Assembly (NCBI GenBank): GCA_040900345.1 | Contig: JBBDZE010000035.1 | Span: 20,125 to 57,509 of the forward strand | DNA from: Candidatus Spechtbacterales bacterium | Lineage (GTDB): Bacteria; Patescibacteriota; Minisyncoccia; Spechtbacterales; 2-12-FULL-38-22 | Length of the DNA: 37,385 bases | Direction: 5' to 3' | In this document: positions 20,494-37,385 of the stretch, piece after piece | Position numbering within the stretch: the stretch's first letter is position 1 | Layout: each line of letters starts with the position of its first letter | The notes under the pieces: generated by a model | Told to the model about the DNA's origin: nothing | Databases searched by the model: none | What the model saw: only the letters and a program-made list of their open reading frames with translations | Program-made: the position numbers and the translations under genes

Positions 20494-21258
20494 CTACCCC
20501 GTCCCTCCCAGTACGTCGGCTGCCGCCTCGCGATAGGCACAGTAGTCACAACGGTTGCTGGCGGGGGGCGTCTCCTCGGCCATCAAACATTCATGGGCGC
20601 GGGTGAGCGCGCCTTCCACCCATGAGTCGTCGCCCTCGTGAGCAATAAGGGTAATATCAAACTCAATTCTGCCGTCGAACGCTGCCGCATCCGTACGACC
20701 GTTGCAGTACACAAAGTATCCCGTGTTGGAAACCGGCAATTCATTTTTGCGCAGCAGCCACTGGTACATTTCCATTTGCCGTTTGTACCCGTCCTGCCAG
20801 GCCTTATCCAGCGCAGTAATTACCTCGTTCTTGCTGGTGGCCTTGTAATCCACCACGATATACTTCCCATCCGAGTCCTGCCACAAATCATCAATGGCAC
20901 CGGAAAATATGAAGTTCGTGGGCTCGTGCAGATATTCTACGCCTTGGAAGTTTTCCCGCCACACGTTCAGCTTGTCGTGGGGTACGGGACGCGCGTCCAC
21001 GCCGTATTGGGCAATGAGAGGATGGGGAGTGCCATTTGTCCGGTGAATATCAAACTCTTTTTTCAACAACGTGTCCACCGCAGAGTTGAGGTTAAAGGGA
21101 AACCCCGGCGGCCGCCCCACCCCCAAGCGACGGTCCATATAAAAACAGCGGGGGCACTCCATAAAAAGCTCCACCTTGGAACGGCTCAGCTTGAACGGCT
21201 TACTGCCGGCCGGGTCAAATATATTGCGGGTGCGTTTGGGATTGTAGTAGTCGCTCAT
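20494..21258 (-). CDS. PD-(D/E)XK nuclease family protein (RecB/Cas4-like)
   Basis: LSRSK..CPRCFY, GAIDD, VVDYK, QMEMY, CDYC. Confidence 0.9.
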   Translation of the reverse strand: MSDYYNPKRTRNIFDPAGSKPFKLSRSKVELFMECPRCFYMDRRLGVGRPPGFPFNLNSAVDTLLKKEFDIHRTNGTPHPLIAQYGVDARPVPHDKLNVWRENFQGVEYLHEPTNFIFSGAIDDLWQDSDGKYIVVDYKATSKNEVITALDKAWQDGYKRQMEMYQWLLRKNELPVSNTGYFVYCNGRTDAAAFDGRIEFDITLIAHEGDDSWVEGALTRAHECLMAEETPPASNRCDYCAYREAAADVLGGTG

Positions 21259-26742: not shown

Positions 26743-27093
26743 CTAGTTCTCTCGCATCTCCCTGATGCTGACCTTGAGCCGCTCGAGGAGTCGCGCGATC
26801 AGTCGGAACATCAGATCATCGGCTTCGGCCGGGTTCTGTGCAAATGTGATGATGGCCTCTGCAATCCCATATCCCAGGCCGACTACGTCCGCGTCAGGAG
26901 GCAGTCCCTCCGACTGATTCCGTTTTCGCCACGTCAGACAGTACACGAGGTCGCTTATGACCTTGCCATCTACACCAGAGATGACTTGGAAGCCCCCAGC
27001 GTGCTCGTCGCCCTGCACCGCTTGTGTAACCTTGTCACACAGCGCCCGCAGGAAAAGCCCCTGCGCTTCCAAGCGTCTCAACGAGTATATCAT
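26743..27093 (-). CDS. Orphan helical hypothetical protein
   Basis: SD GGAG; promoter TTGACT-N17-TATTTT (27168-27140); terminator downstream. Confidence 0.65.
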   Translation of the reverse strand: MIYSLRRLEAQGLFLRALCDKVTQAVQGDEHAGGFQVISGVDGKVISDLVYCLTWRKRNQSEGLPPDADVVGLGYGIAEAIITFAQNPAEADDLMFRLIARLLERLKVSIREMREN

Positions 27094-27183
27094 TCTTGCT
27101 CCAACTCATGCGACACGATGTCAGAACTTCTATGCTTGCAAAATACTCCATTTAAAGAGCCTAGTCAACTACCCAGCCCACAA

Positions 27184-27219
27184 TAAACGGCTAGGTAGCG
27201 GCAAAAATGACAAGGCCCC
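27184..27219. repeat. Copy A of a 36-bp imperfect direct repeat
   Basis: TAAACGGCTAGGTAGCGGCAAAAATGACAAGGCCCC; 32/36 identical to 28262-28297. Confidence 0.85.
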
Positions 27220-27237
27220 TGACGTGCAGGGGCCTTG
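27211..27237 (-). terminator. Terminator of orphan 27296..27499, overlapping repeat A
   Basis: CAAGGCCCCTG-acgtg-CAGGGGCCTTG followed by a T-rich tract on the minus strand. Confidence 0.75.
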
Positions 27238-27295
27238 GCCGCGAACTCCTCTTTGCTCACGGCCTAAATGTTCAATTGTTCGCTCGACTTATCAA

Positions 27296-27499
27296 CTACT
27301 CCTCCGAGATCTCCTCGCCCTCCTCATCATCGCTCGATTCCGCTCGGGCGAAGCGCGGTACAAGACGACGCGTTCGCTTCCCGCTGTTGATGCGCTTCAG
27401 CATCACCTCGGCAATGTACAGCGCGCTGATCAGAAACAGAAGCGAAGCCGCCCCCATCGTCAGATATGCCGCCGCGACTTCAATATGACTCGGGTCCAT
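27296..27499 (-). CDS. 67-aa single-TM orphan with acidic tail; start moved to MDPSHI
   Basis: SD GGGGAGAGG; TM then basic then acidic segment. Confidence 0.6.
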   Translation of the reverse strand: MDPSHIEVAAAYLTMGAASLLFLISALYIAEVMLKRINSGKRTRRLVPRFARAESSDDEEGEEISEE

Positions 27500-27618
27500 G
27501 ACCTCTCCCCTCATGTACGGATTTGCTAGCCGCGTTCTGGCCACTCGGATTGGCTCGACTCGCCCCCAGCATACGCAAAACGGGGCATGAAAACAAGCCC
27601 CCGGGCCTCTAAGGGCGC

Positions 27619-27645
27619 ATGGATTTTTGCATTGCCTTCATTGTA
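27619..27645 (-). pseudogene. Remnant copy of the ygjP-like 5' end (-10 box plus MQKS)
   Basis: ATGGATTTTTGCAT at 27619-27632 equals 26606-26619; both have TACAAT 6-7 nt upstream of the ATG; reads MQKSMRP*. Confidence 0.65.
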
Positions 27646-27668
27646 TACCGAACAGCCCAAATCAAAGA

Positions 27669-27709
27669 GCCGGCGAGTAGTTTGTTCCGAAGAACATTTC
27701 CTCGCCGGC
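27669..27709 (-). terminator. Hairpin downstream of orphan 27726..28124
   Basis: GCCGGCGAG..TGTTC/GAACA..CTCGCCGGC. Confidence 0.6.
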
Positions 27710-27725
27710 CTTGTCCCCGAAGGGA

Positions 27726-28124
27726 CTACATCTGGTTTACGACCTCCCGTAGGAGCTCGCGCTGCCCCTCCTGGTCGCCGTTGGCGATCAAGCGGGCCAG
27801 TGCTTCTTGAACGGAGCCCTTGGTCCCTCCAGAGAGGAAGTCCGCGAGGCCGCTGATGTCCAGAATCTTATAGGCCTCGGTCGACGGACTTGGGTGGGCG
27901 GCCTGCTTGGTGCCGACGAGGCTGACGCACCTCGTCAGCAGCTCCTGCTTGTTCGGCTCAAACCTGTCTGGATCGAGCTTGAAGCTCGACGAGTCGAGCT
28001 TCAGCAGCGTGGACAGCCTGCGGCCCTCCACAAGGTGCTCCACCCGCCCCCAGATCTGCCGATCCTGCCAGATCAGGAACGCACACATTACCCCGAGGAC
28101 CACGACGCCAATCTCAGCAAACAC
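27726..28124 (-). CDS. N-terminally anchored orphan protein; start moved to GTG (MFAEIG)
   Basis: SD GAAGGA; promoter TTGACA-N17-TATTAT (28231-28203). Confidence 0.6.
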   Translation of the reverse strand: MFAEIGVVVLGVMCAFLIWQDRQIWGRVEHLVEGRRLSTLLKLDSSSFKLDPDRFEPNKQELLTRCVSLVGTKQAAHPSPSTEAYKILDISGLADFLSGGTKGSVQEALARLIANGDQEGQRELLREVVNQM

Positions 28125-28260
28125 GATAGTATCCTTCCCGCAAAGAAGTCCTTGACAGAGAACCCTGTGCCCCCCGCCAATCTCCCTCACGTTACTGTTA
28201 TAATAATAGCATAAAGTGATAAGTTTGTCAATAGCAAAAACGGCCGCTTCCCACCCAAAC

Positions 28261-28578
28261 CTAAACGGCTAGATAGCGACAGAAATGACAAGCCCCCGCC
28301 CGCTCCAACTCATCCATATACCGCACGACTGTGCGGTCCGTTACGCCCAACTCATCCCGAATGTCGGCATTTGAAAGCTCGGGGTTCTGCGCGAAAAGCT
28401 CCATTATTTTTTGCTTGTTCGCATTCTTGCGAATGGTCTGATCCATAGCCGCCCGACACATCCCCGAAAGTTCTTGGGCAGTTGAAGTCCCGCGCTTTTG
28501 TGCCCCCCGCCGCGCCAGCCACAAAACCGCGGCCGCTGCGGTAATTATGGTGATGAGAATGTATGGGAAGGGGTTCAT
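28261..28578 (-). CDS. TM-anchored winged-helix protein, apparently 3'-truncated
   Basis: KIMELF..LSNADIRDELGVTDRTVVRYMDELE; the last ~10 codons are read from repeat B and the wing strands are absent. Confidence 0.7.
   Translation of the reverse strand: MNPFPYILITIITAAAAVLWLARRGAQKRGTSTAQELSGMCRAAMDQTIRKNANKQKIMELFAQNPELSNADIRDELGVTDRTVVRYMDELERAGACHFCRYLAV
28262..28297. repeat. Copy B of the 36-bp imperfect direct repeat
   Basis: TAAACGGCTAGATAGCGACAGAAATGACAAGCCCCC. Confidence 0.85.
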
Positions 28579-28716
28579 ATAAATTACGGTTCGCCCTAAA
28601 ATTTTTGTGGGCTATTTATTTACTTGCGTTGCTCCTTCGCACCCATGCGCACACAAACCCTACCCGCTGACGCGGACGGGGCTCTCCCCCAATTTTATTT
28701 CCCTGGTCTTCCGAAA

Positions 28717-28875
28717 TCAGGTTCTTCCAGCTCTTTTACCTCCGCACCTACTGCAGGTGCGGAGGTTCTGATTTTTTCGATCATTTGGTTCACTGCATGT
28801 TAAGCACAGTCCTTGTGCCCACATTTCATCTGCATGATCCTGACCTTCTACGTCTAAATCTCTATTATCTTGCAT
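28717..28875 (-). CDS. 52-aa CxxC-CxxC zinc-finger protein (not in ORF track)
   Basis: MQDNRDLDVEGQDHADEMWAQGLCLTCSEPNDRKNQNLRTCSRCGGKRAGRT*; starts 35 nt after the DUF2779-like stop. Confidence 0.55.
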   Translation of the reverse strand: MQDNRDLDVEGQDHADEMWAQGLCLTCSEPNDRKNQNLRTCSRCGGKRAGRT

Positions 28876-28910
28876 AATTTAGACTATACGATTTTTACCT
28901 AACAATGACA

Positions 28911-30407
28911 TTAGGAATATAAATGCTTCCAGATTTTAAACATTGCATATGTATCAAGTTTACAATATTCCTTAAGGTCTTGCGAAATTTGTGCACGCTC
29001 TACATCGGAAGTTGTGGATGATATCATTTGCCACCAAGCATCAGATGCTTGCCCGCCTTCTTGGATACTAAGGTCTGAGTGTTGAGCCCCATCTACTAAC
29101 GCGGGGAATACTTTCTTTATGGATGTCTTCCCGCGAAAATCAGGATGCACATAGTATTGTTTTTTGAAAATATCTTGTAGATCATACATATCTGCATTGA
29201 TGCGCTCCAAAGCCACCCGATGTGCCGGATGCCGAGTGGCCATTTCTTTATTAACTCCTTGTTCAAAGCTCTTATTCCAAGAAATAACGCTTCCTCCTGG
29301 TTGTATGTGTTGTGTAAGTAACTCAATAACCATTTCAGAAGGATCCGATGCCTCCTCGTGCAAATATTCAACATGCTCAGGCTTGCTGGATGGATCATTC
29401 AAGATATGCAGTGAAAACTGAAATGGAATTCGTTGGTAGGGACTATATCCAGTAAACATTGGTATAGCGGGCGCAAATGTTTCGTAGTCAAGAAAATAGA
29501 GGGGAAACGTGAGTGAACCTAACTCATCCCGTATCTTCTCAATTTCAATGATTGATTTTTGAGTCAAGTGAACCTGCACTTGGTTTGCTTGTATTACGCT
29601 GAGTGTAATGTCATCTGGAATATCCTCAATGGCATATATCCCTCGTTCGACCATTGCTATCAATTTTTTCTTACTATTACCAATACGAGCCAAATCATGT
29701 ATCGAATAATCCGGAACTTCAGAGTGTGAATATTTAAATGTTGAACAATGGGTACTTCTTCCAGTAAGGTGACAATCGCAGCCTGTCCCTGGCTCGTCTT
29801 CTCGTGTGAGAAATTCAAGTGCAGCCTCCATCTTTGGTTCAATCCCAACAAGGCGATCTGTTATCTTCTCTGTCACGTCTTCTTTCTTAAACATCTCCTC
29901 AATTACCAGATCGCCTACACGGATATATTCCTTATTTAGATACACAAGGAAGCATCTGCCTAGAGGGACCTTGGCACGCATAAGTACTGACCTTTGAAAC
30001 GCAAGGTCGTCTATGTGGTCTCTATCACCACCGTTTTCTCTTATAGAATTGGCTCCTTTCACTTCACAGATGTTCCAGCAGTCTTTTTCAGCATCGTACT
30101 CAAGCGCATCTACTTTTGCTATAAATCCGTCAGTTACAAAAGTTGCTTGGAAAATTGTTGACACTTTTGAGAGCATCAGGCGCTCAGTTTCGTGCACAGC
30201 CTCATCCCCAGTTTCAACCACCTGAACACCCCCGGGGAATAGATTACGGGCGCACGACTCTACTTCATTCCCTTGCTCAACTAATTGAAGCTCAAAGGGT
30301 GATAGTGAAAACTGATCTAAAAGCTCTCGTTTATGCAATTTAAGCCATGTATTTTTGGGACACATCAGAAATTCCAAAAATTTCGTTTTTGAAACTAATG
30401 CCTGCAT
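28911..30407 (-). CDS. DUF2779-like protein: RecB/Cas4-like PD-(D/E)XK domain plus RNase H-fold DEDD-like domain
   Basis: SKTKF..CPK..WL, KVDAL, EVKGA, DLAFQ, C.C...C; FLDYET, PYQRIPFQFSLH, WNKSFE, SIKKV, YCKLDT. Confidence 0.85.
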   Translation of the reverse strand: MQALVSKTKFLEFLMCPKNTWLKLHKRELLDQFSLSPFELQLVEQGNEVESCARNLFPGGVQVVETGDEAVHETERLMLSKVSTIFQATFVTDGFIAKVDALEYDAEKDCWNICEVKGANSIRENGGDRDHIDDLAFQRSVLMRAKVPLGRCFLVYLNKEYIRVGDLVIEEMFKKEDVTEKITDRLVGIEPKMEAALEFLTREDEPGTGCDCHLTGRSTHCSTFKYSHSEVPDYSIHDLARIGNSKKKLIAMVERGIYAIEDIPDDITLSVIQANQVQVHLTQKSIIEIEKIRDELGSLTFPLYFLDYETFAPAIPMFTGYSPYQRIPFQFSLHILNDPSSKPEHVEYLHEEASDPSEMVIELLTQHIQPGGSVISWNKSFEQGVNKEMATRHPAHRVALERINADMYDLQDIFKKQYYVHPDFRGKTSIKKVFPALVDGAQHSDLSIQEGGQASDAWWQMISSTTSDVERAQISQDLKEYCKLDTYAMFKIWKHLYS

Positions 30408-30408
30408 T

Positions 30409-33400
30409 TTATTGATCAGTAAGAGGTTTTATTTTTAATTCATCCAACTTCTCCCACAAACTATCGAGTGCCTTATCTTTATGGCGGTAAAAAGAGCCGC
30501 CGCTTATACGCCAAAATTCCCAACCTGCACGACGCAATTGCCTTTCTCTTGTTTGGTCTGCCTCCCAGTTTTCTAGGGTGTGATATTGGTCACCATCACA
30601 TTCAACCGCCAAGCGAGCATTTTCCCCCTGAACAACAAGATCGATGCGATATCCGATGACAGGGTACTCAGGAATCACTTGATAACCTCGATTTATAATG
30701 AGATTGCCGACTTCGTAGGAAAATTGTGACGCTCTCCCGTTATCAAATTCCTTTTTGAGTGCTTTCCGACCTGCTTCCAACTCCTCGGTTTGCGGATCGT
30801 AATACCAATTTAATAGCTTGTATCTCCAATCATTTTGATTCTTAAATTCCTCAAGCGGAATTGAGTGGTAAAGAAATACCTGATCCCGACCTCGCGTAGC
30901 GGCGACGTTAAATCTCTGAGCGGTTCCTTTATCGGCCACAGCTCGTACGGTATCGTCAGGGTTATTTGGATCCAAAGCTTTTACCATCGATAGGAACATC
31001 ACGTCTCTTTCATCCCCCTGAAATGCGTATGCGTCACCACAAGTTATATTGCGTTCCTCAATAACTTTCTCGCCAATTTTAGGATGTTTGAGTAGCAACT
31101 CCTTTATATACTTTGCTTGATCCTCTGCAAGAAGTGAAATTACACCAAAAGTGCAAAGATGGCCATTCGGCCTTTGCTGATAGTTAGGGTCTTCAATTAA
31201 CTCGGCAATTTTCTCAACAATCTCCCTTGCTTCCGGCTCGTTCACTTTGTTATTTGTGTTTTGATAACCACCCTCAACTAGCTTAGGGACCAAGGCGGGT
31301 TTCAGTAATCCCTTAGGATTCGGGTGCCGCAGAGGTTCCAGCCTTCCTTCATAGATATGATGATTGCTGAAAGCAATAATCTCCGGAACAGATCTAAAGT
31401 GCTCCTTGAGCTGAATCATGTTTGAAATTCTGATTTGTGCCAACTCAAACAGACTCGATGTGATAGAGAAATTGCCCTTGTGTGGTATATCGTATAGGAG
31501 CCTTGAAATGAGTTCGAACACTCTTCCTTGATCTTGGAAAATACCTGCTGGGCTAATCTGATCTGGATCACCGACGACTAACAGTTTCTTACCTAGATAA
31601 GCAATAGTTAAGGCACGAATATCGCATTGACTTGCTTCGTCAAATATAACCACATCAAACATTCCTGCTTTTGGATCAGAAAACATTTGCGCCGCACGAT
31701 GTAGCGGCATAATCCAAACCGGAACGGCGTTTTTTGCCTCAACGAGAGAGTCTTGTGCATCGCGAAGCCACTTCGAAGCATATTTACCTGTACCTTTGCC
31801 GTACTTCTTCATTGCATGCGACCATGCCATCAAAGCAGCGCGTTGCTTTTCTGTAACCCTATCAATCTGCCGCTGCCACGCAAGAATTGTGACTAGTTCT
31901 GAGTTGAGCTGAAGTTCTTTCTTTGTAAGACGCTCGTGCTGGCCTTGGAGTTCGTCAACGCTTATGTGGTTGTAAATTTCATCTAACCAAGATTCCAAGC
32001 GGGCAATTTCCCAAACCAGTTCGAGATTGTCGGGACAATTAAATTTTTTCTTTTGATCTGCAAGTCCAACAATGTCTTGATATAGATTGGGAGCATGCTT
32101 TTTAATTTTTTCGGCAATTTCATTTAGCCGTATTGCGCGTTCTCTATTCTCAAACAGTATAGCTAACTCCTCAATCGCTTTTTTCCAAGCAGTACCGTTC
32201 CGTTTTTCTATCGCCTGAATAAGTTTAGTTTTAATGTCGAGTAATCTTGTAGAATCTCCAATGAGATGAATCCACTCGGAAAACGTTATATCGAGCTTAG
32301 ATAATCCGAATTTTGCTACGCTTGAAATAATTAGTTCTTTTGCCGAATCAATATCTTCGAGCTTTGCGAATGACAAATCCGAAAGCTGTTTGATCTTTTG
32401 AAAAGATTCTTGGATAGGCAAAAAGTCGTCATGGTAATTAGATAATCTCTTGATACCAGTAACTAAAACCTCAAGCTGTACAACGTCCAAATTTATGTCA
32501 GGCAAATCCGGCTTTCCTTTGAGCCCACTAAAACTTTGACTCAGAATAGTTTTAATTTCTCTTTCAGCCTGTTCTGCTGAAATTTGCTCATATAAAATTT
32601 GCACTCTGTCAGAAGAATCGGGTGATCGTCCATCAACGTTATATGCCTCTAAAACTTTTTTGGCATTTGTGGAAAGAAGCAATTTTCCAAAAGTACCCAG
32701 CTTGGTTTTCCCAGCAACTTTTCTTTTCAACTCCGCCACAGCATCCACTAAGTCGTTAATGGATAAAGATAATGAGCCGAAAATCTCATGCCCAATTAAT
32801 TTTTGTCTTGTTTGTGCTACAGATTCTGTTTTTTCAGCAATCTTGTTTAAAATAACCGTCCATTTGTCGCGCTCATTCTTGCTCTTTATGCAGGCATCGA
32901 AAATCTCGTATTCGTAGTTATTGTTGACCGAAACCAGGACTTTTCGCGCATTGTTTAACATTTCCCACAGTTTTTCTAGTTCGTCTTGATCTGCTTTTAT
33001 AGCAAATGAACCGAATGCTTTTCCCGATATTTTTGATTTCGAATTTAATTCTCGAAATTCAAAAAAAGCACCGAGGACAACATCCTCGTTTGGTAAGATT
33101 GTTAAATCGGGCAAACTAAATTTATGGAGATTTCTATCTTCCTTGCTGAGCTCTAGGAGTAGGCGATAGGCAGTTTTTAAATCATCGGTCGTAAAATCGA
33201 GATCGGTGTCAAAATGAATATTATCAGTAAACCATGATAGATTTTCGTTTGCTGAATGTTCACTAACCAACCCGGCCGCTTCTATTGGGCTTACCTCATC
33301 GCCGTTTATGTGCAACTTCTCAGTTGAATCGGTAAGAATATACTGGCGAATTTTATTCGCGATGACAGCCTTTTCTTCACGTGTTCGTGCAAGTTCTCTT

Positions 33401-35226
33401 CTAACTGCTTCAACTTTGCTTTCGCTGAATTTTGTACGACGTTCGCTTAAATTTGAGCTTATTTCTGCTATGGATTGCTGCAAAATTTCGTCGCGACGTA
33501 CCGTTTGCTGAAGTTGTGAGACTGTAAGGCTGCGGATATCTTCTGGCAATTTATCGCGTAAAACCTCTAACGCTTTGCTTGTTTGGGAGGTGACCAAAAC
33601 AGTTTTACCCTGCGACAGAAAGCGTGCAACTAGGTTTGCGATTGTATGACTTTTCCCAGTGCCCGGAGGCCCCTTAACTACAACGCCGTAATTTGTTTCT
33701 AAGCGTTCAGCAATTCTTTTCTGCTCATCATTCCAAGGTAGCGGGAAAAATAATTCGGCTTCTTTTAGCGCAATATCTTGATTTTGATCGCTGCCTTCAA
33801 CAACGCGAACGCCGTCTTGTTCGTCATTCTCTCCAATAAGGTCATTGATAAACTCTGTTGATTTTGCGTCGTTCTGCTCAATATCTCTACGAATTTTTTC
33901 TGCATACTTTGACCACAGGCTATTTGTTCTTTTCCGTACAAAAATCACTGGTGAATTCCAAATGCTCGGATTATCTGTGACAGTTGGTGCTGTACTTATT
34001 TCGTCACTAAAGTTGTTCTCGCTATCAGGCGAGAGATAGTTCAAAAAAATATTTACTTGAGACTTGAGGGTTTCTAAATGCCAAAAGTCGAACGGATTGG
34101 TGTTAATTACTCCCATCCAAGCATCAAGGTCAATTTCTGCCGGATTATCCATTTCCGAGACAGGGCTGATTTCGACAAAGCTCCTAAACATTGGATCGGG
34201 GTTGATCTCGATTGCTCTTTTCGATGCATCAAATTCTAGCGTTAAAGGCGTTAAGAAAATAGGAGCGTAAATGGTTCCAGTCTCTTGATTTTCCCAAGTC
34301 AAAACACCATGACCGAGCAACAATTCATATTCATCCCCCTCACTTTTTAGAAGAAGACGCAAGGCATAAAGCTGGTCATATAAAAGATTCGCCTTGTAAA
34401 CTTTTTTTACTCGATCAGCCCATTCTTTCCATTCGTTTTCTATATAACCGTTGAGCAATTGTGCAAGTTCAAGGTAATCCGTCCAATAGTCGGGAATGTA
34501 TCTCACCTCGATTATTTCGGGTAGTTTGTTTGGTTTTGGTACTACCCAATTTTGCAAAGATTCAGGCATCTGATTTCCTTGTTCAAAATCCTTTCGGAAT
34601 TCCTTGAAATCTTTTACTCGATTTTTACTAGTATCAAATCGCACCTTTCTATCGACTTTCTCTAGCGGTCTTGGTTCTTCCAATGGCGTAACTTCAGAAA
34701 CCCACTCCACAAGCTCCTCTGGCAAAGCTGGAGCGGCTTCAATATTTTTCTTCTCCACTTCTAGCCACGCTGTCTGTGCACCTGAGTCGTGAGACTCTTT
34801 GTCAGTATCGAAAGGACGAATGTAAAGGTTGTCCAGGTCGCGTGGATAATCCGCAAGCCACCATGGAGAAGGCGGCGCAATTGCAGTTTTGAAATCACGG
34901 ACCACTACATCGTCCAGTGACAAAACTTTTTCTAGATAGCCAAAAAGGCGCACTATTTTATTTTGTGCTTCGGCAGAAACTTCTATGTTAAAGTCGCTCT
35001 CTAGTACTGGAGTGTTCACATCTTCATTCTCTATTTCGCTTGCTTGATTTTGTGTAACTTTAGCCATTTTGTTTCTGGTTTTGTCCGAAGACCTGGTGTT
35101 TATTTTCTCTTTCGCTTTCTTACACTCCCAACAAATTCTACCTTGTTTAACCTTACGCGCCCGACACACCGAACAGACGGATTTTGATGCCCAATACCCA
35201 TCTGCATCAAACTTTTTACGTCTCAT
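30409..35226 (-). CDS. Large SF1 (DNA2/NAM7-like) helicase with coiled-coil insert and C-terminal DUF559/Vsr-like nuclease
   Basis: GPPGTGKS, DEASQ, VGDPDQ, EHFRS, FQGDERD, RFNVAATRGR; YRIDLVV..AVECDGDQYH..RERQL...GW.F.RI; N-terminal CxxC..CxxC. Confidence 0.9.
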   Translation of the reverse strand: MRRKKFDADGYWASKSVCSVCRARKVKQGRICWECKKAKEKINTRSSDKTRNKMAKVTQNQASEIENEDVNTPVLESDFNIEVSAEAQNKIVRLFGYLEKVLSLDDVVVRDFKTAIAPPSPWWLADYPRDLDNLYIRPFDTDKESHDSGAQTAWLEVEKKNIEAAPALPEELVEWVSEVTPLEEPRPLEKVDRKVRFDTSKNRVKDFKEFRKDFEQGNQMPESLQNWVVPKPNKLPEIIEVRYIPDYWTDYLELAQLLNGYIENEWKEWADRVKKVYKANLLYDQLYALRLLLKSEGDEYELLLGHGVLTWENQETGTIYAPIFLTPLTLEFDASKRAIEINPDPMFRSFVEISPVSEMDNPAEIDLDAWMGVINTNPFDFWHLETLKSQVNIFLNYLSPDSENNFSDEISTAPTVTDNPSIWNSPVIFVRKRTNSLWSKYAEKIRRDIEQNDAKSTEFINDLIGENDEQDGVRVVEGSDQNQDIALKEAELFFPLPWNDEQKRIAERLETNYGVVVKGPPGTGKSHTIANLVARFLSQGKTVLVTSQTSKALEVLRDKLPEDIRSLTVSQLQQTVRRDEILQQSIAEISSNLSERRTKFSESKVEAVRRELARTREEKAVIANKIRQYILTDSTEKLHINGDEVSPIEAAGLVSEHSANENLSWFTDNIHFDTDLDFTTDDLKTAYRLLLELSKEDRNLHKFSLPDLTILPNEDVVLGAFFEFRELNSKSKISGKAFGSFAIKADQDELEKLWEMLNNARKVLVSVNNNYEYEIFDACIKSKNERDKWTVILNKIAEKTESVAQTRQKLIGHEIFGSLSLSINDLVDAVAELKRKVAGKTKLGTFGKLLLSTNAKKVLEAYNVDGRSPDSSDRVQILYEQISAEQAEREIKTILSQSFSGLKGKPDLPDINLDVVQLEVLVTGIKRLSNYHDDFLPIQESFQKIKQLSDLSFAKLEDIDSAKELIISSVAKFGLSKLDITFSEWIHLIGDSTRLLDIKTKLIQAIEKRNGTAWKKAIEELAILFENRERAIRLNEIAEKIKKHAPNLYQDIVGLADQKKKFNCPDNLELVWEIARLESWLDEIYNHISVDELQGQHERLTKKELQLNSELVTILAWQRQIDRVTEKQRAALMAWSHAMKKYGKGTGKYASKWLRDAQDSLVEAKNAVPVWIMPLHRAAQMFSDPKAGMFDVVIFDEASQCDIRALTIAYLGKKLLVVGDPDQISPAGIFQDQGRVFELISRLLYDIPHKGNFSITSSLFELAQIRISNMIQLKEHFRSVPEIIAFSNHHIYEGRLEPLRHPNPKGLLKPALVPKLVEGGYQNTNNKVNEPEAREIVEKIAELIEDPNYQQRPNGHLCTFGVISLLAEDQAKYIKELLLKHPKIGEKVIEERNITCGDAYAFQGDERDVMFLSMVKALDPNNPDDTVRAVADKGTAQRFNVAATRGRDQVFLYHSIPLEEFKNQNDWRYKLLNWYYDPQTEELEAGRKALKKEFDNGRASQFSYEVGNLIINRGYQVIPEYPVIGYRIDLVVQGENARLAVECDGDQYHTLENWEADQTRERQLRRAGWEFWRISGGSFYRHKDKALDSLWEKLDELKIKPLTDQ

Positions 35227-35465
35227 TTCTATAGTTACCTTTTTGCTATTTCAGTTCCGAACAGACCTACCTCCCGTCTATTTATACTGTCCCAACTGAA
35301 TACGACACCCCCCAATAAGCCTAGCTCGACGTTGAGGAAAATAAGGACCTACGATTTTTACCATTACAAGATATTCCATAGCTCCGTATACCTCTTCCTT
35401 TCTAATTTACGCTTCCCCTTCAATGCACGCGCCGGCTAGCGCTTACCCAACTACGGGATAAGATA

Positions 35466-36605
35466 TTACCTAGTGACTACCTCGGCCCTCTGCAATAGCC
35501 AATCGATGTCAAATCTCGAGCTATCCTCCTTGACTGTTTCATCAAGATCTCGAATGGAATCATAAGAAAGGTACTTAACGACCCTGTCTAGTTCAAGGTA
35601 TGAATTCGAGAAAGTCGGCCGTTGTAACTCATTAAAAACTTTCTTCCGACGCTCTCTCGGAGCAACTATAAATAACGGGTAATTAGAGTTGGGGGTAAGG
35701 GCTCGCAAATCAGAAAGCCTAAGAATACCTGAGTATACCGAGGTTGAATTTTCCACCTCAAAAGCAGCCTTCACAGATTGCCCGAGCTTCCAAACTGCAT
35801 CTATATTCTTTATATAGATAGGGACATCCAAGGTTTCATGGAAATCCTCCAAAACCATAGGCCTAAAAACCTCCCCATTATACTCCTTTCCCTTGTCATT
35901 TTCTGGAACCCAAACATCGAAATGCGAGCGTAGGCCTAACCGAATAAGTCGCCATTGCATCTCGCTGTGCTCTGTAGGTTGCTTCTTAATTTCTTCGTCA
36001 ACCGCCTCAAATATCCTCCCTTTATCAATTTCAATTTTTTCAACCCGTTCGCCACTCTGTAATTTCTGAAGAAGAGAAATCAAATCCCCGTAGTCACTCA
36101 AAATCCTATCGGCCTTTGTCTGATCTACGGCCATAAATCCTTGCGGATGATACTTCCTTTGATAACCCAGGTATTCATTGAGCTTTTCAATGTCAACACT
36201 AAAGTCAACCTCATTAATCATGAAGTAGATTAATTCCCACGTCTTTCCATTAGAATCTTTCTGCCAAAAATATTCAGCAAGAGCGGCATTTCGTATTTTC
36301 ATGCCAATCTCTGCCGCAAGAATTATTTTGCCTCTTCGATAAACCATTACGTAATCTCCCGCTTCCATTGCCTCCCAGTTCCTAATATTACTAACACCAG
36401 GAACTGCTCCCCAGACGGCATAAGGACGCCCATGAGCATACTCTTCTAGAATATTTTTCTCTTCTAATCCTAGAAATCTAGAAAAATCGGATACTGGTCG
36501 TTTGTTTAGAATAGTATCGTAATAATGACGGTCAGTATCGTGACCGCCGCCCGCCATTACAAAAAATATTTTCCGTTTTTTATTCATAGACTCCTCACTA
36601 ACCAT
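35466..36605 (-). CDS. PUA/EVE-like reader domain fused to a PD-(D/E)XK restriction-like nuclease
   Basis: WGAVPG..N..NWEAMEAGDYVMVY; HSEMQW.L..LG, IDAVW, AAFEVENSTSVYSGILRLSDL, LFIVAP, ELQRPTF. Confidence 0.75.
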   Translation of the reverse strand: MVSEESMNKKRKIFFVMAGGGHDTDRHYYDTILNKRPVSDFSRFLGLEEKNILEEYAHGRPYAVWGAVPGVSNIRNWEAMEAGDYVMVYRRGKIILAAEIGMKIRNAALAEYFWQKDSNGKTWELIYFMINEVDFSVDIEKLNEYLGYQRKYHPQGFMAVDQTKADRILSDYGDLISLLQKLQSGERVEKIEIDKGRIFEAVDEEIKKQPTEHSEMQWRLIRLGLRSHFDVWVPENDKGKEYNGEVFRPMVLEDFHETLDVPIYIKNIDAVWKLGQSVKAAFEVENSTSVYSGILRLSDLRALTPNSNYPLFIVAPRERRKKVFNELQRPTFSNSYLELDRVVKYLSYDSIRDLDETVKEDSSRFDIDWLLQRAEVVTR

Positions 36606-36614
36606 GATTCTCTT

Positions 36615-36677
36615 CCCTAGAACCTAGCCCCTAGCAACTAGAACCTAGTGCCTATCACCTAAAACCTAACACCTAAT
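36615..36677. repeat. Nine degenerate tandem heptamers (consensus nCCTARn) at the island edge
   Basis: CCCTAGA ACCTAGC CCCTAGC AACTAGA ACCTAGT GCCTATC ACCTAAA ACCTAAC ACCTAAT. Confidence 0.8.
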
Positions 36678-36678
36678 T

Positions 36679-37215
36679 TTAAAACACATACCTCTCCGTA
36701 TTTCTCAAATCAATCCCGTAATACTTTTTGTGCAAGACCGACTGATCCACAAAAATTGCATCGTTCCAGTCCAAACCTAGTAAGTCCGCGCCTTTGCGCA
36801 CCGCCTCCTCACTGGGTGCTTCAATTTCCAGCACCATGGGAATTTTGGGCCAAAAATCCAAGTCAAAGGTAATGTCGTCCAGCTTGTAGGTGATGCGCTT
36901 CTTCTCCTGGTAGCGGCGCAAGGGGATATCCAGTGCCAAAATAAACTCGGCGGCCGCCTCGGCCGATGATACCTCAAACTCAATTTCTGTGGTGCCGTCC
37001 ACCGTGTCCACCTCGTTCTCTTTATAGGTAAGGCGCACGGTGGCGCCGTCGTCGCGCACGCGGATGCGGCGGTTGCGGGCAATCCAGGTGTCGGTGTTGT
37101 GGTAAAAAAGCTTCTCTTTGAAAAACTTATCCGAAACTTTCTTAGCACCCGCGCGGACAAGTTTTTCTTCCACTTCTTTCTGGTCCAGGTTTATAAACCG
37201 AGCTTCTATTTCCAT
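36679..37215 (-). CDS. CYTH domain protein (class IV adenylate cyclase/triphosphatase-like)
   Basis: MEIEARF, RIRVR, LTYK, EIEF, QEKKR, LEIEA. Confidence 0.88.
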   Translation of the reverse strand: MEIEARFINLDQKEVEEKLVRAGAKKVSDKFFKEKLFYHNTDTWIARNRRIRVRDDGATVRLTYKENEVDTVDGTTEIEFEVSSAEAAAEFILALDIPLRRYQEKKRITYKLDDITFDLDFWPKIPMVLEIEAPSEEAVRKGADLLGLDWNDAIFVDQSVLHKKYYGIDLRNTERYVF

Positions 37216-37385
37216 ACTATTCTTTTCGTTTGAAAATTTTTGCGAAAAACTGAGCGACTGCCTTTTGTAGATCGCCTCGATCTCGCGAAGATGCTGCCAC
37301 TGCGAACGAAGCTCATAGCTACCTACAGCTTACTCCAACAAAAAACACCTCGCAATGAGGTGGGTCGTCAGCAGATGGGGGGGGG

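Follow-up and report, generated by a model that had tools for sequence, protein, structure and literature searches.

A helicase-nuclease gene on a low-GC island of a candidate phyla radiation bacterium is followed by an exchangeable nuclease gene: a candidate modular, defence-type locus

We analyzed a 37,385-nucleotide stretch of DNA from a Candidatus Spechtbacterales bacterium (GenBank assembly GCA_040900345.1, contig JBBDZE010000035.1, positions 20,125 to 57,509; the whole stretch is called the window, and positions refer to it). Our subject is a pair of adjacent genes near its end, one encoding a superfamily 1 (SF1) helicase joined to a nuclease domain and the other a protein of the DUF2779 family. 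The window comprises the final 37.4 kb of its contig, in an assembly of 659 kb and 35 contigs that is 94.8% complete; a genome of about 659 kb is usual for the candidate phyla radiation (CPR, or Patescibacteria). Across most of the first 28 kb, GC content is 0.52-0.62, with a single dip to 0.48-0.50 at 17-19 kb, and the genes of this backbone have ordinary content (an MFS transporter, M17 peptidase, P-type ATPase, sigma factor and NUDIX hydrolase). From about 28.5 kb through the window end GC content is 0.37-0.44, and this block has an overall value of 42%, compared to 55% for the genome. The resulting low-GC island (28580..37385), which carries both genes, runs off the contig end, and every recognisable gene in it lies on the minus strand.

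The helicase-nuclease gene (30409..35226, minus strand) encodes 1605 amino acids, and the DUF2779 gene (28911..30407, minus strand) encodes 498. Read on the minus strand, their junction is ...caa TAA a ATG cag..., with the helicase stop codon at 30411-30409, one spacer base at 30408 and the next ATG at 30407-30405. A database gene call places the start of the DUF2779 gene at Met15, giving 484 amino acids (P0125); we favour the upstream ATG because homologues align from residues 1-5.

The 1605-residue protein matches three Pfam profiles: AAA_11 at residues 499-638, AAA_12 at 1257-1452 and, over its full length, REase_MTES_1575 at 1502-1594 (E = 1.8e-27; the DUF559 profile scored more weakly, at 6.5e-4). 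The first two delimit an Upf1-like SF1 helicase core (residues 498-1480; 30787..33735, minus strand) whose motifs are all intact and do not vary among 19 family members: Walker A GPPGTGKS (519-526), DEASQ (1196-1200), GDPxQ (1219-1223), QGDERD (1403-1408), and R1445 and R1447. The solved structures closest to a profile of these 19 members are the Upf1-like helicases Sen1, Upf1, Dna2 and IGHMBP2. An insert of about 500 residues (approximately 640-1150), in which no Pfam domain is found, splits the core between motif Ia and motif II. The third match marks a C-terminal PD-(D/E)XK nuclease domain of the Vsr/DUF559 type (residues 1502-1594; 30445..30723, minus strand), in which the predicted nuclease residues D1529, E1542, D1544 and H1549 are likewise invariant among the 19 sequences. 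The protein ends 11 residues beyond this domain.

The N-terminal region is specific to the family. It begins with a Cys4 zinc ribbon of the form CxxC...CxxC (residues 18-36; 35119..35175, minus strand), which is kept in most family members and missing from three short forms; a sub-threshold DZR_2 match falls on it in 14 of 23 members. Further along lies a DUF4011-like core (residues ~301-340; 34207..34326, minus strand), where the sub-threshold Pfam match (PF13195; 15.1 bits against a cut-off of 22.2) covers only 40 residues and occurs in 8 of 23 members. The family is large, with 1630 proteins at E≤0.001, and at least 120 listed homologues are 61-81% identical over their full length; those named among the matches listed come from Woesebacteria, Levybacteria and metagenome-assembled genomes labelled only "bacterium". 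From such alignments we assign the protein to a large, tightly conserved and as yet unnamed CPR family. One homologue (L028) has an in-frame stop at codon 6 (MVIYR*KFDAK..., 2449-2470), which could be explained by translation from another start codon, by an error in sequencing or by recoding of the stop.

The partner protein has a full-profile match to Pfam DUF2779 (PF11074, positions 1-126) at residues 304-429, scoring 144.1 bits against a gathering threshold of 23.3 (E = 3.5e-42). An AlphaFold2 model built from a 24-sequence alignment (mean predicted local distance difference test score, pLDDT, 91.9) resolves it into two nuclease-like halves. The N-terminal half (residues 1-230; 29718..30407, minus strand) resembles Cas4/RecB nucleases: Foldseek matched it to Cas4, lambda exonuclease, MGME1 and Exo5 (E = 3e-4 to 1e-2, probability ~1), the best Cas4 match being 8d3l_I (E = 3.2e-4, probability 1.0, TMt 0.50), and the PADLOC Cas4 profile gave a weak match (0.002). 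Residues C16, D100, E115, K117, Q138, C210, C212 and C221 are invariant in the 24 sequences. A D...ExK motif and four cluster-type cysteines thus appear within a modelled Cas4 fold, and these cysteines may hold an iron-sulfur (Fe-S) cluster.

The C-terminal half (residues 300-498; 28911..29510 including the stop codon, minus strand) is modelled as an RNase H-like fold of the PolB type. VIA structure comparison aligned it to the exonuclease-like domain of Pol alpha (Z = 15.9, root-mean-square deviation 2.5 Å over 171 residues) and to archaeal PolB exonuclease domains (Z = 14-15), and D307, E309, D409, Y481 and D485 are invariant in the same alignment, spelling the DxE, D and Yx3D signature of a DEDDy 3'-5' exonuclease. 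By profile and by model, then, the partner appears to be a true DUF2779 member that unites a Cas4-like four-cysteine nuclease half with a PolB-type DEDDy exonuclease half. It shares these two heads with the DUF2779/UU173 family (PF11074; NF045869) but lies outside the UU173 subfamily (NF045869, 47.1 bits against a cut-off of 225). In a full-text literature search we found neither a published function for DUF2779 nor a link between this family and defence. An initial annotation, made by reading the DNA and its open reading frames, had proposed the one-nucleotide gap, an AT-rich block unlike the backbone, intact SF1 motifs, a long insert in the helicase and three predicted nuclease folds, and each of these features is borne out here.

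To determine what lies downstream of the helicase elsewhere, we collected 59 loci: two from genomes, 56 from metagenomes and the window itself. Because the scan of the genome collection gave only two, the context described below is mostly metagenomic. Eleven loci lacked the 3' end of the helicase gene or enough DNA beyond it, leaving 48 that could be assessed, and merging seven near-identical pairs reduced these to 41 distinct loci. Partner classes were set by BLASTP clustering and Pfam scans of cluster representatives. The next gene encodes a DUF2779 protein at 14 of the 41 and a DUF2130 protein at nine; we count DUF2130 as a nuclease on the basis of a table that lists it among the PD-(D/E)XK families (PMC3424549), and BLASTP detected no similarity between DUF2130 and RmuC (E = 0.53). 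Six more loci have other PD-(D/E)XK or dual-nuclease forms directly downstream (a split Cas4-like plus PolB-exonuclease-like pair, two PDDEXK_1 genes, a Cas4-HhH-RNase_H_2 fusion, RmuC, YhcG and LlaMI), the split or independently fused Cas4 plus exonuclease forms being those of L004/5, L028 and L037. At three loci a nuclease (SNase, DUF2130 or DUF2779) is the second or third gene. A predicted nuclease is therefore the first downstream gene at 29 of 41 distinct loci and lies among the first three at 32. The partner starts no more than about 20 nt from the end of the helicase gene, or overlaps it. At one locus (L001, 7507-10388) both common partners occur in series, in the order helicase, DUF2779, DUF2130.

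The association between the helicase and DUF2779 is real and far above chance. With approximately 58 DUF2779 matches in 401 genomes of the phylum as background, its presence behind 14 of 41 helicases represents, by rough estimate, a very large enrichment. The co-occurrence of the two families, which the annotation had named as a check, recurs well beyond the window. What does not recur is a fixed partnership. At least eight gene types fill the slot behind the helicase, and at least 15 switches of partner type (scored as DUF2779, DUF2130 or other) are needed on a helicase tree with 33 tips. Sister helicases have unlike partners: L044 (DUF2130) and L045 (DUF2779), with branches of 0.018 and 0.025; L017 (DUF2779) and L018 (DUF2130); and L021 (DUF2779) and L022 (DUF2130).

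The degree of divergence is equally uncoupled between the two genes. Identity to the window copies ranges from 59 to 86% for the helicase and from 38 to 69% for DUF2779, and the two do not track each other: L001 combines a helicase of 78% with a DUF2779 protein of 41%, and L002 a helicase of 66% with a DUF2779 protein of 69%. Among 13 public loci with DUF2779 directly downstream, 11 have proteins only 38-46% identical to the window's, and the other two reach 56% and 69%. The partner switches and the discordant identities together point to a slot that accepts nucleases rather than to a co-evolving pair.

These results bear most directly on the idea that the helicase and DUF2779 proteins constitute a dedicated, obligate two-gene system, forming a specific complex, co-evolving and needing each other. 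The one-base spacer would suit such a pair, as would the same gene order at 14 of 41 distinct loci and the occurrence in another genome of the phylum (G322) of a distant 1588-residue SF1 helicase followed by WYL and DUF2779 genes. Set against them are the repeated switches, the near-identical helicases followed by DUF2130 or by DUF2779, the low identity of most DUF2779 partners relative to that of the helicases, the distinct loci where neither of the first two genes downstream is a predicted nuclease, and the lack of any such helicase near the closest DUF2779 relatives from our phylum sample (45-52% identical). DUF2779 also stands behind SNF2, restriction-modification and housekeeping genes. 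The partner is not conserved and the two proteins do not diverge together, and we regard an obligate pair as quite improbable; as a claim about a dedicated two-gene system, the initial annotation is not supported. What we see is a modular variant of a known helicase-nuclease defence theme, not a fixed new two-gene system.

The sites at which partners change are sharply defined. The DNA of L044 and L045 is ~97% identical as far as a point some 35 nt short of the helicase stop codon, and beyond it the two sequences are unrelated. Similarly, L032 (12786) and L053 (2954) are at least 97% identical across the final 840 nt of the helicase gene and have unlike downstream genes: an ABC ATPase and a pyruvate:ferredoxin oxidoreductase follow in L032, and RmuC follows in L053. 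A homology break at the helicase 3' end is what a cargo junction would give, and it can be taken to mean that there is no functional link at all, the helicase sufficing on its own, as a single-gene system in the manner of Hhe or Prometheus, and the site behind it being a hotspot for unrelated island cargo. The helicase does carry its own nuclease, and the slot also takes a kinase, the LlaMI restriction enzyme, and DUF3800 with AbiV. Unrelated cargo would not, in contrast, be expected to show so strong a bias to PD-(D/E)XK and exonuclease genes, operon-like spacing, or three independent architectures that combine a Cas4-like nuclease with an RNase H-fold exonuclease (DUF2779, the split pair and the Cas4-HhH-RNase_H_2 fusion). 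We consider the absence of any link unlikely.

The same breaks raise a further, tentative possibility, which we think has some merit without being the probable explanation: the helicase 3' end may serve as a recombination anchor for a fast-exchanging nuclease cassette, so that one sensor-motor could be re-armed with DUF2779, DUF2130, RmuC, YhcG or a split Cas4 plus exonuclease. As part of this cassette-anchor proposal, and held just as loosely, CPR helicase-based immunity might have a plug-in effector architecture, perhaps driven by phage inhibitors of particular nucleases.

The surroundings of the helicase family are mobile and rich in defence genes. Serine recombinases occur in 16 of the 58 public helicase loci and tRNA genes in 15, and the helicase rides on integrative islands. 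The window itself contains no tRNA, positions 27000-37385 have no Rfam family at E≤0.1, and a search of the 35-contig assembly with the L001 recombinase detected no serine recombinase. Since the island runs off the contig, its recombinase end is missing from the window. Among the neighbours that can be recognised, defence genes are frequent: an Eco57I-like methylase beside DarT-Macro, an OLD-type ATPase together with a UvrD helicase, Shedu SduA, type I restriction-modification with MazF, AbiEii, AbiV with DUF3800, LlaMI, Fic and HEPN. In one locus (L058, 10-5173) the Eco57I-like methylase, then DarT and a Macro-domain protein, lie just upstream of the helicase; in another (L040, 8062-10687) a Gabija-like OLD-type AAA_15/TOPRIM ATPase and a UvrD-like helicase lie two genes downstream. 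We also considered a phage origin and rejected it, as the helicase profile was confirmed in none of 57 candidate IMG/VR stretches; DUF2779 occurs on 13 IMG/VR viral contigs, none with a relative of the window helicase (P0001) at E≤1e-4.

Not all of the context speaks of defence. Genes for XseA, RecJ, RecQ and UvrC lie near some loci, and DUF2779 is itself present in 53 of 401 genomes of the phylum, where about half of those sampled place it in conserved housekeeping neighbourhoods. Within a single family of the phylum (L070-L073, from G217, G037, G202 and G150) DUF2779 stands beside a Mur ligase, with an FMN reductase as well in two loci, which suggests a vertically inherited housekeeping lineage distinct from the island copies. 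At the rest of the 20 best DUF2779 matches, the DUF2779 gene lies behind or opposite a helicase (the 1588-residue SF1 helicase with WYL, or an SNF2 helicase), restriction genes (an MmeI-type enzyme with Abi_alpha, or type III and type I genes accompanied by Shedu), an AAA_15 ATPase, an integrase or a LAGLIDADG protein. Other relatives of the SF1 helicase (helicase-Vsr) in the phylum have an adjacent nuclease at 5 of 14 loci: DUF2130 (L080), a divergently transcribed DUF2779 (L084), PDDEXK_1 (L085), a 497-residue RNase_H_2 protein (L090) and DUF2779 (L065).

These repair and housekeeping neighbours, the serine recombinases noted above and a domain logic like that of Dna2 or AddAB would all be compatible with a role in DNA repair, recombination or island maintenance, either as a portable end-resection machine (a helicase with 5' and 3' exonucleases) for genomes without RecBCD/AddAB or in processing the island's own DNA. 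Such a role fits poorly with the patchy, island-borne distribution of the helicase among representative genomes and with its foreign GC content; moreover, defence genes are the commonest recognisable neighbours, and the closest named relatives are anti-phage proteins. We therefore judge it rather unlikely.

Together, the results lead us to favour, with confidence a little above even, a defence-type DNA-degrading module in which the helicase is the conserved core cargo of mobile islands disseminated among CPR bacteria and the downstream gene fills an exchangeable nuclease slot. This reading builds on what is observed at these loci: the domains are present with their catalytic residues intact, the genes are spaced as in an operon, the pairing recurs although partners are swapped, and the surroundings are mobile and rich in defence genes. 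The helicase product would be an ATP-driven, Upf1-like SF1 translocase with its own Vsr-type endonuclease, and its zinc ribbon and DUF4011-like N-terminal region would probably read the target. We infer that invading or replicating foreign DNA is the substrate that it recognises or loads onto. The Vsr-like domain may then nick this DNA while the helicase translocates and unwinds it, and the DUF2779 protein, as an accessory nuclease perhaps in contact with the helicase, would use its two exonuclease heads to digest the freed strands in both polarities, the polarity of each head being taken, by assumption, from Cas4 and PolB. Such an order of events, and an anti-phage outcome, would liken the module to RecBCD/AddAB- or Dna2-like machines and to helicase-plus-nuclease defence systems.

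Helicase-plus-nuclease machines of this general kind include AddAB/RecBCD, Dna2, Hachiman (HamAB), Gabija (GajAB) and Nhi, in which an SF1 motor is combined with a PD-(D/E)XK nuclease that degrades the unwound DNA. Dna2, which joins a Cas4-like Fe-S nuclease to an Upf1-like helicase, is among the solved relatives of the window's helicase core. Unlike all of these, the window locus has its second nuclease in a separate, exchangeable gene and a helicase that already bears a Vsr-type nuclease; we found no membership by sequence in any of them, GajB giving only 0.008 in PADLOC.

Closer relatives are found among single-protein systems. Hhe, a DUF4011-helicase-Vsr single-gene system reportedly described by Gao et al. 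in 2020, has in common with the window protein an Upf1-like SF1 helicase and a C-terminal Vsr/DUF559-type nuclease, and residues 1154-1601 align. The kinship to Hhe-type defence proteins that the initial annotation had suspected is therefore real, though only the rear third of the window protein matches and there is no clear DUF4011. The best PADLOC match is PDC-S37 (E = 6e-58, 194.7 bits, no cut-off shown), which aligns residues 451-1598 with profile positions 249-1342 of 1550; this score is low for a protein of 1605 residues, the N-terminus and the profile's C-terminal 200 positions remain unmatched, and PDC-S37 is a candidate system only, on which our literature search retrieved no paper. 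The best named match is Prometheus ProA, which also has helicase and nuclease in one polypeptide and whose alignment spans the large helicase insert and the Vsr-type nuclease. The window protein differs in that its first 450 residues are unaligned and its DUF4011 match is sub-threshold, and its family adds the N-terminal zinc ribbon and, usually, a separate downstream nuclease gene.

As for the pair, the helicase matches only PDC-S37, Hhe and Mokosh in PADLOC-DB v2, which catalogues no helicase-DUF2779 combination, and none appeared in the literature searched, in agreement with the annotation's remark that this pairing is not a named system.

Several observations weigh against a defence module of this kind. 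The scores against the named systems fall far below their equivalog cut-offs: 231.6 bits against 1500 for ProA (NCBIfam NF058533; E = 1.4e-68, in one stretch over residues 450-1598) and 132.5 bits against 2000 for Hhe (NF042953, PADLOC PDLC02194; E = 1e-38). An article (PMC13700489), citing van den Berg et al. 2024, describes ProA as an experimentally validated single-protein anti-phage system of Pseudomonas aeruginosa with four domains, all of them essential, among them an N-terminal DUF4011 and a C-terminal DUF3320. The window protein has no DUF3320 (no PF11784 match at E≤0.01, in a Pfam scan that finds this domain in the relatives L085 and L087). With no DUF3320 and a different N-terminus, it is best classified from its sequence as a relative, not a member, of Prometheus, Hhe and PDC-S37. 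We considered whether the downstream nuclease might stand in for the missing DUF3320 and rejected the idea: L085 has DUF4011, MTES_1575 and DUF3320, yet a PDDEXK_1 gene overlaps its 3' end.

Further points on the same side concern the N-terminal region, the distribution of the helicase and the dispensability of the partner. AlphaFold2 modelled residues 80-480 poorly (mean pLDDT 61.5, predicted TM-score 0.52), a wide VIA structure search with this region returned nothing above Z = 3.6, and a profile search of PDB sequences returned nothing at E≤1. Of 401 genomes representing the phylum, just one, that of the window itself, has a close homologue of the helicase, as would suit DNA that is carried on islands and poorly binned. 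At 9 of the 41 distinct loci neither of the first two downstream genes is a predicted nuclease (these have a kinase, an ABC ATPase, unknowns or convergent genes instead), and because the helicase also has its own nuclease, the partner appears dispensable. Housekeeping-type genes (FMN reductase, Mur ligase, amino-acid kinase and TspO) neighbour approximately 10 of the 20 best DUF2779 matches, which is compatible with a general DNA-processing role. Finally, a defence role for the helicase family is itself predicted from sequence and context.

If it functions as a defence module, the locus would extend a poorly understood group. Hhe- and Prometheus-type proteins are classed as single-gene defence systems, and little is known of how they work; here the same core occurs on CPR islands with an interchangeable second nuclease. 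Should that second nuclease contribute, such systems would be modular, and pairs of helicase with DUF2779 and helicase with DUF2130 would constitute a natural swap experiment. They would also offer a first testable role for DUF2779 and DUF2130, both widespread domains whose function is unknown.

The rest of the island and its edges have further features. Just upstream of the helicase gene lies a gene for a 379-residue protein (35466-36605, minus strand) in which PADLOC matches REase_II at residues 212-352 (1.4e-12) and which a language model likens to EVE-domain and NmeDI_C restriction-enzyme clusters (scores of 0.93-0.99). This protein, possibly a modification-dependent restriction enzyme, had no match above cut-off in Pfam (a weak, sub-threshold IFS match only) and none in NCBIfam. 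The final gene of the contig (36679-37215, minus strand) encodes a CYTH, or class IV adenylate-cyclase-like, protein (Pfam CYTH, 7.4e-08; TIGR00318, 50.4 bits against a cut-off of 57.95). At the opposite edge, where GC content is backbone-like, a gene on the minus strand (28261-28578) encodes a 105-residue winged-helix, helix-turn-helix protein whose N-terminus may form a membrane helix. A gap of 330 bp separates this gene from the DUF2779 stop codon, at the GC transition, and in it a perfect 12-bp GC-rich hairpin is followed by a T-run (28738-28766, plus strand); the hairpin looks like a plus-strand terminator, yet no plus-strand gene lies upstream of it. The host backbone also has a stand-alone PDDEXK_1 (Cas4/RecB-like) protein of its own, 254 residues long (20494-21258, minus strand; 6.4e-16).

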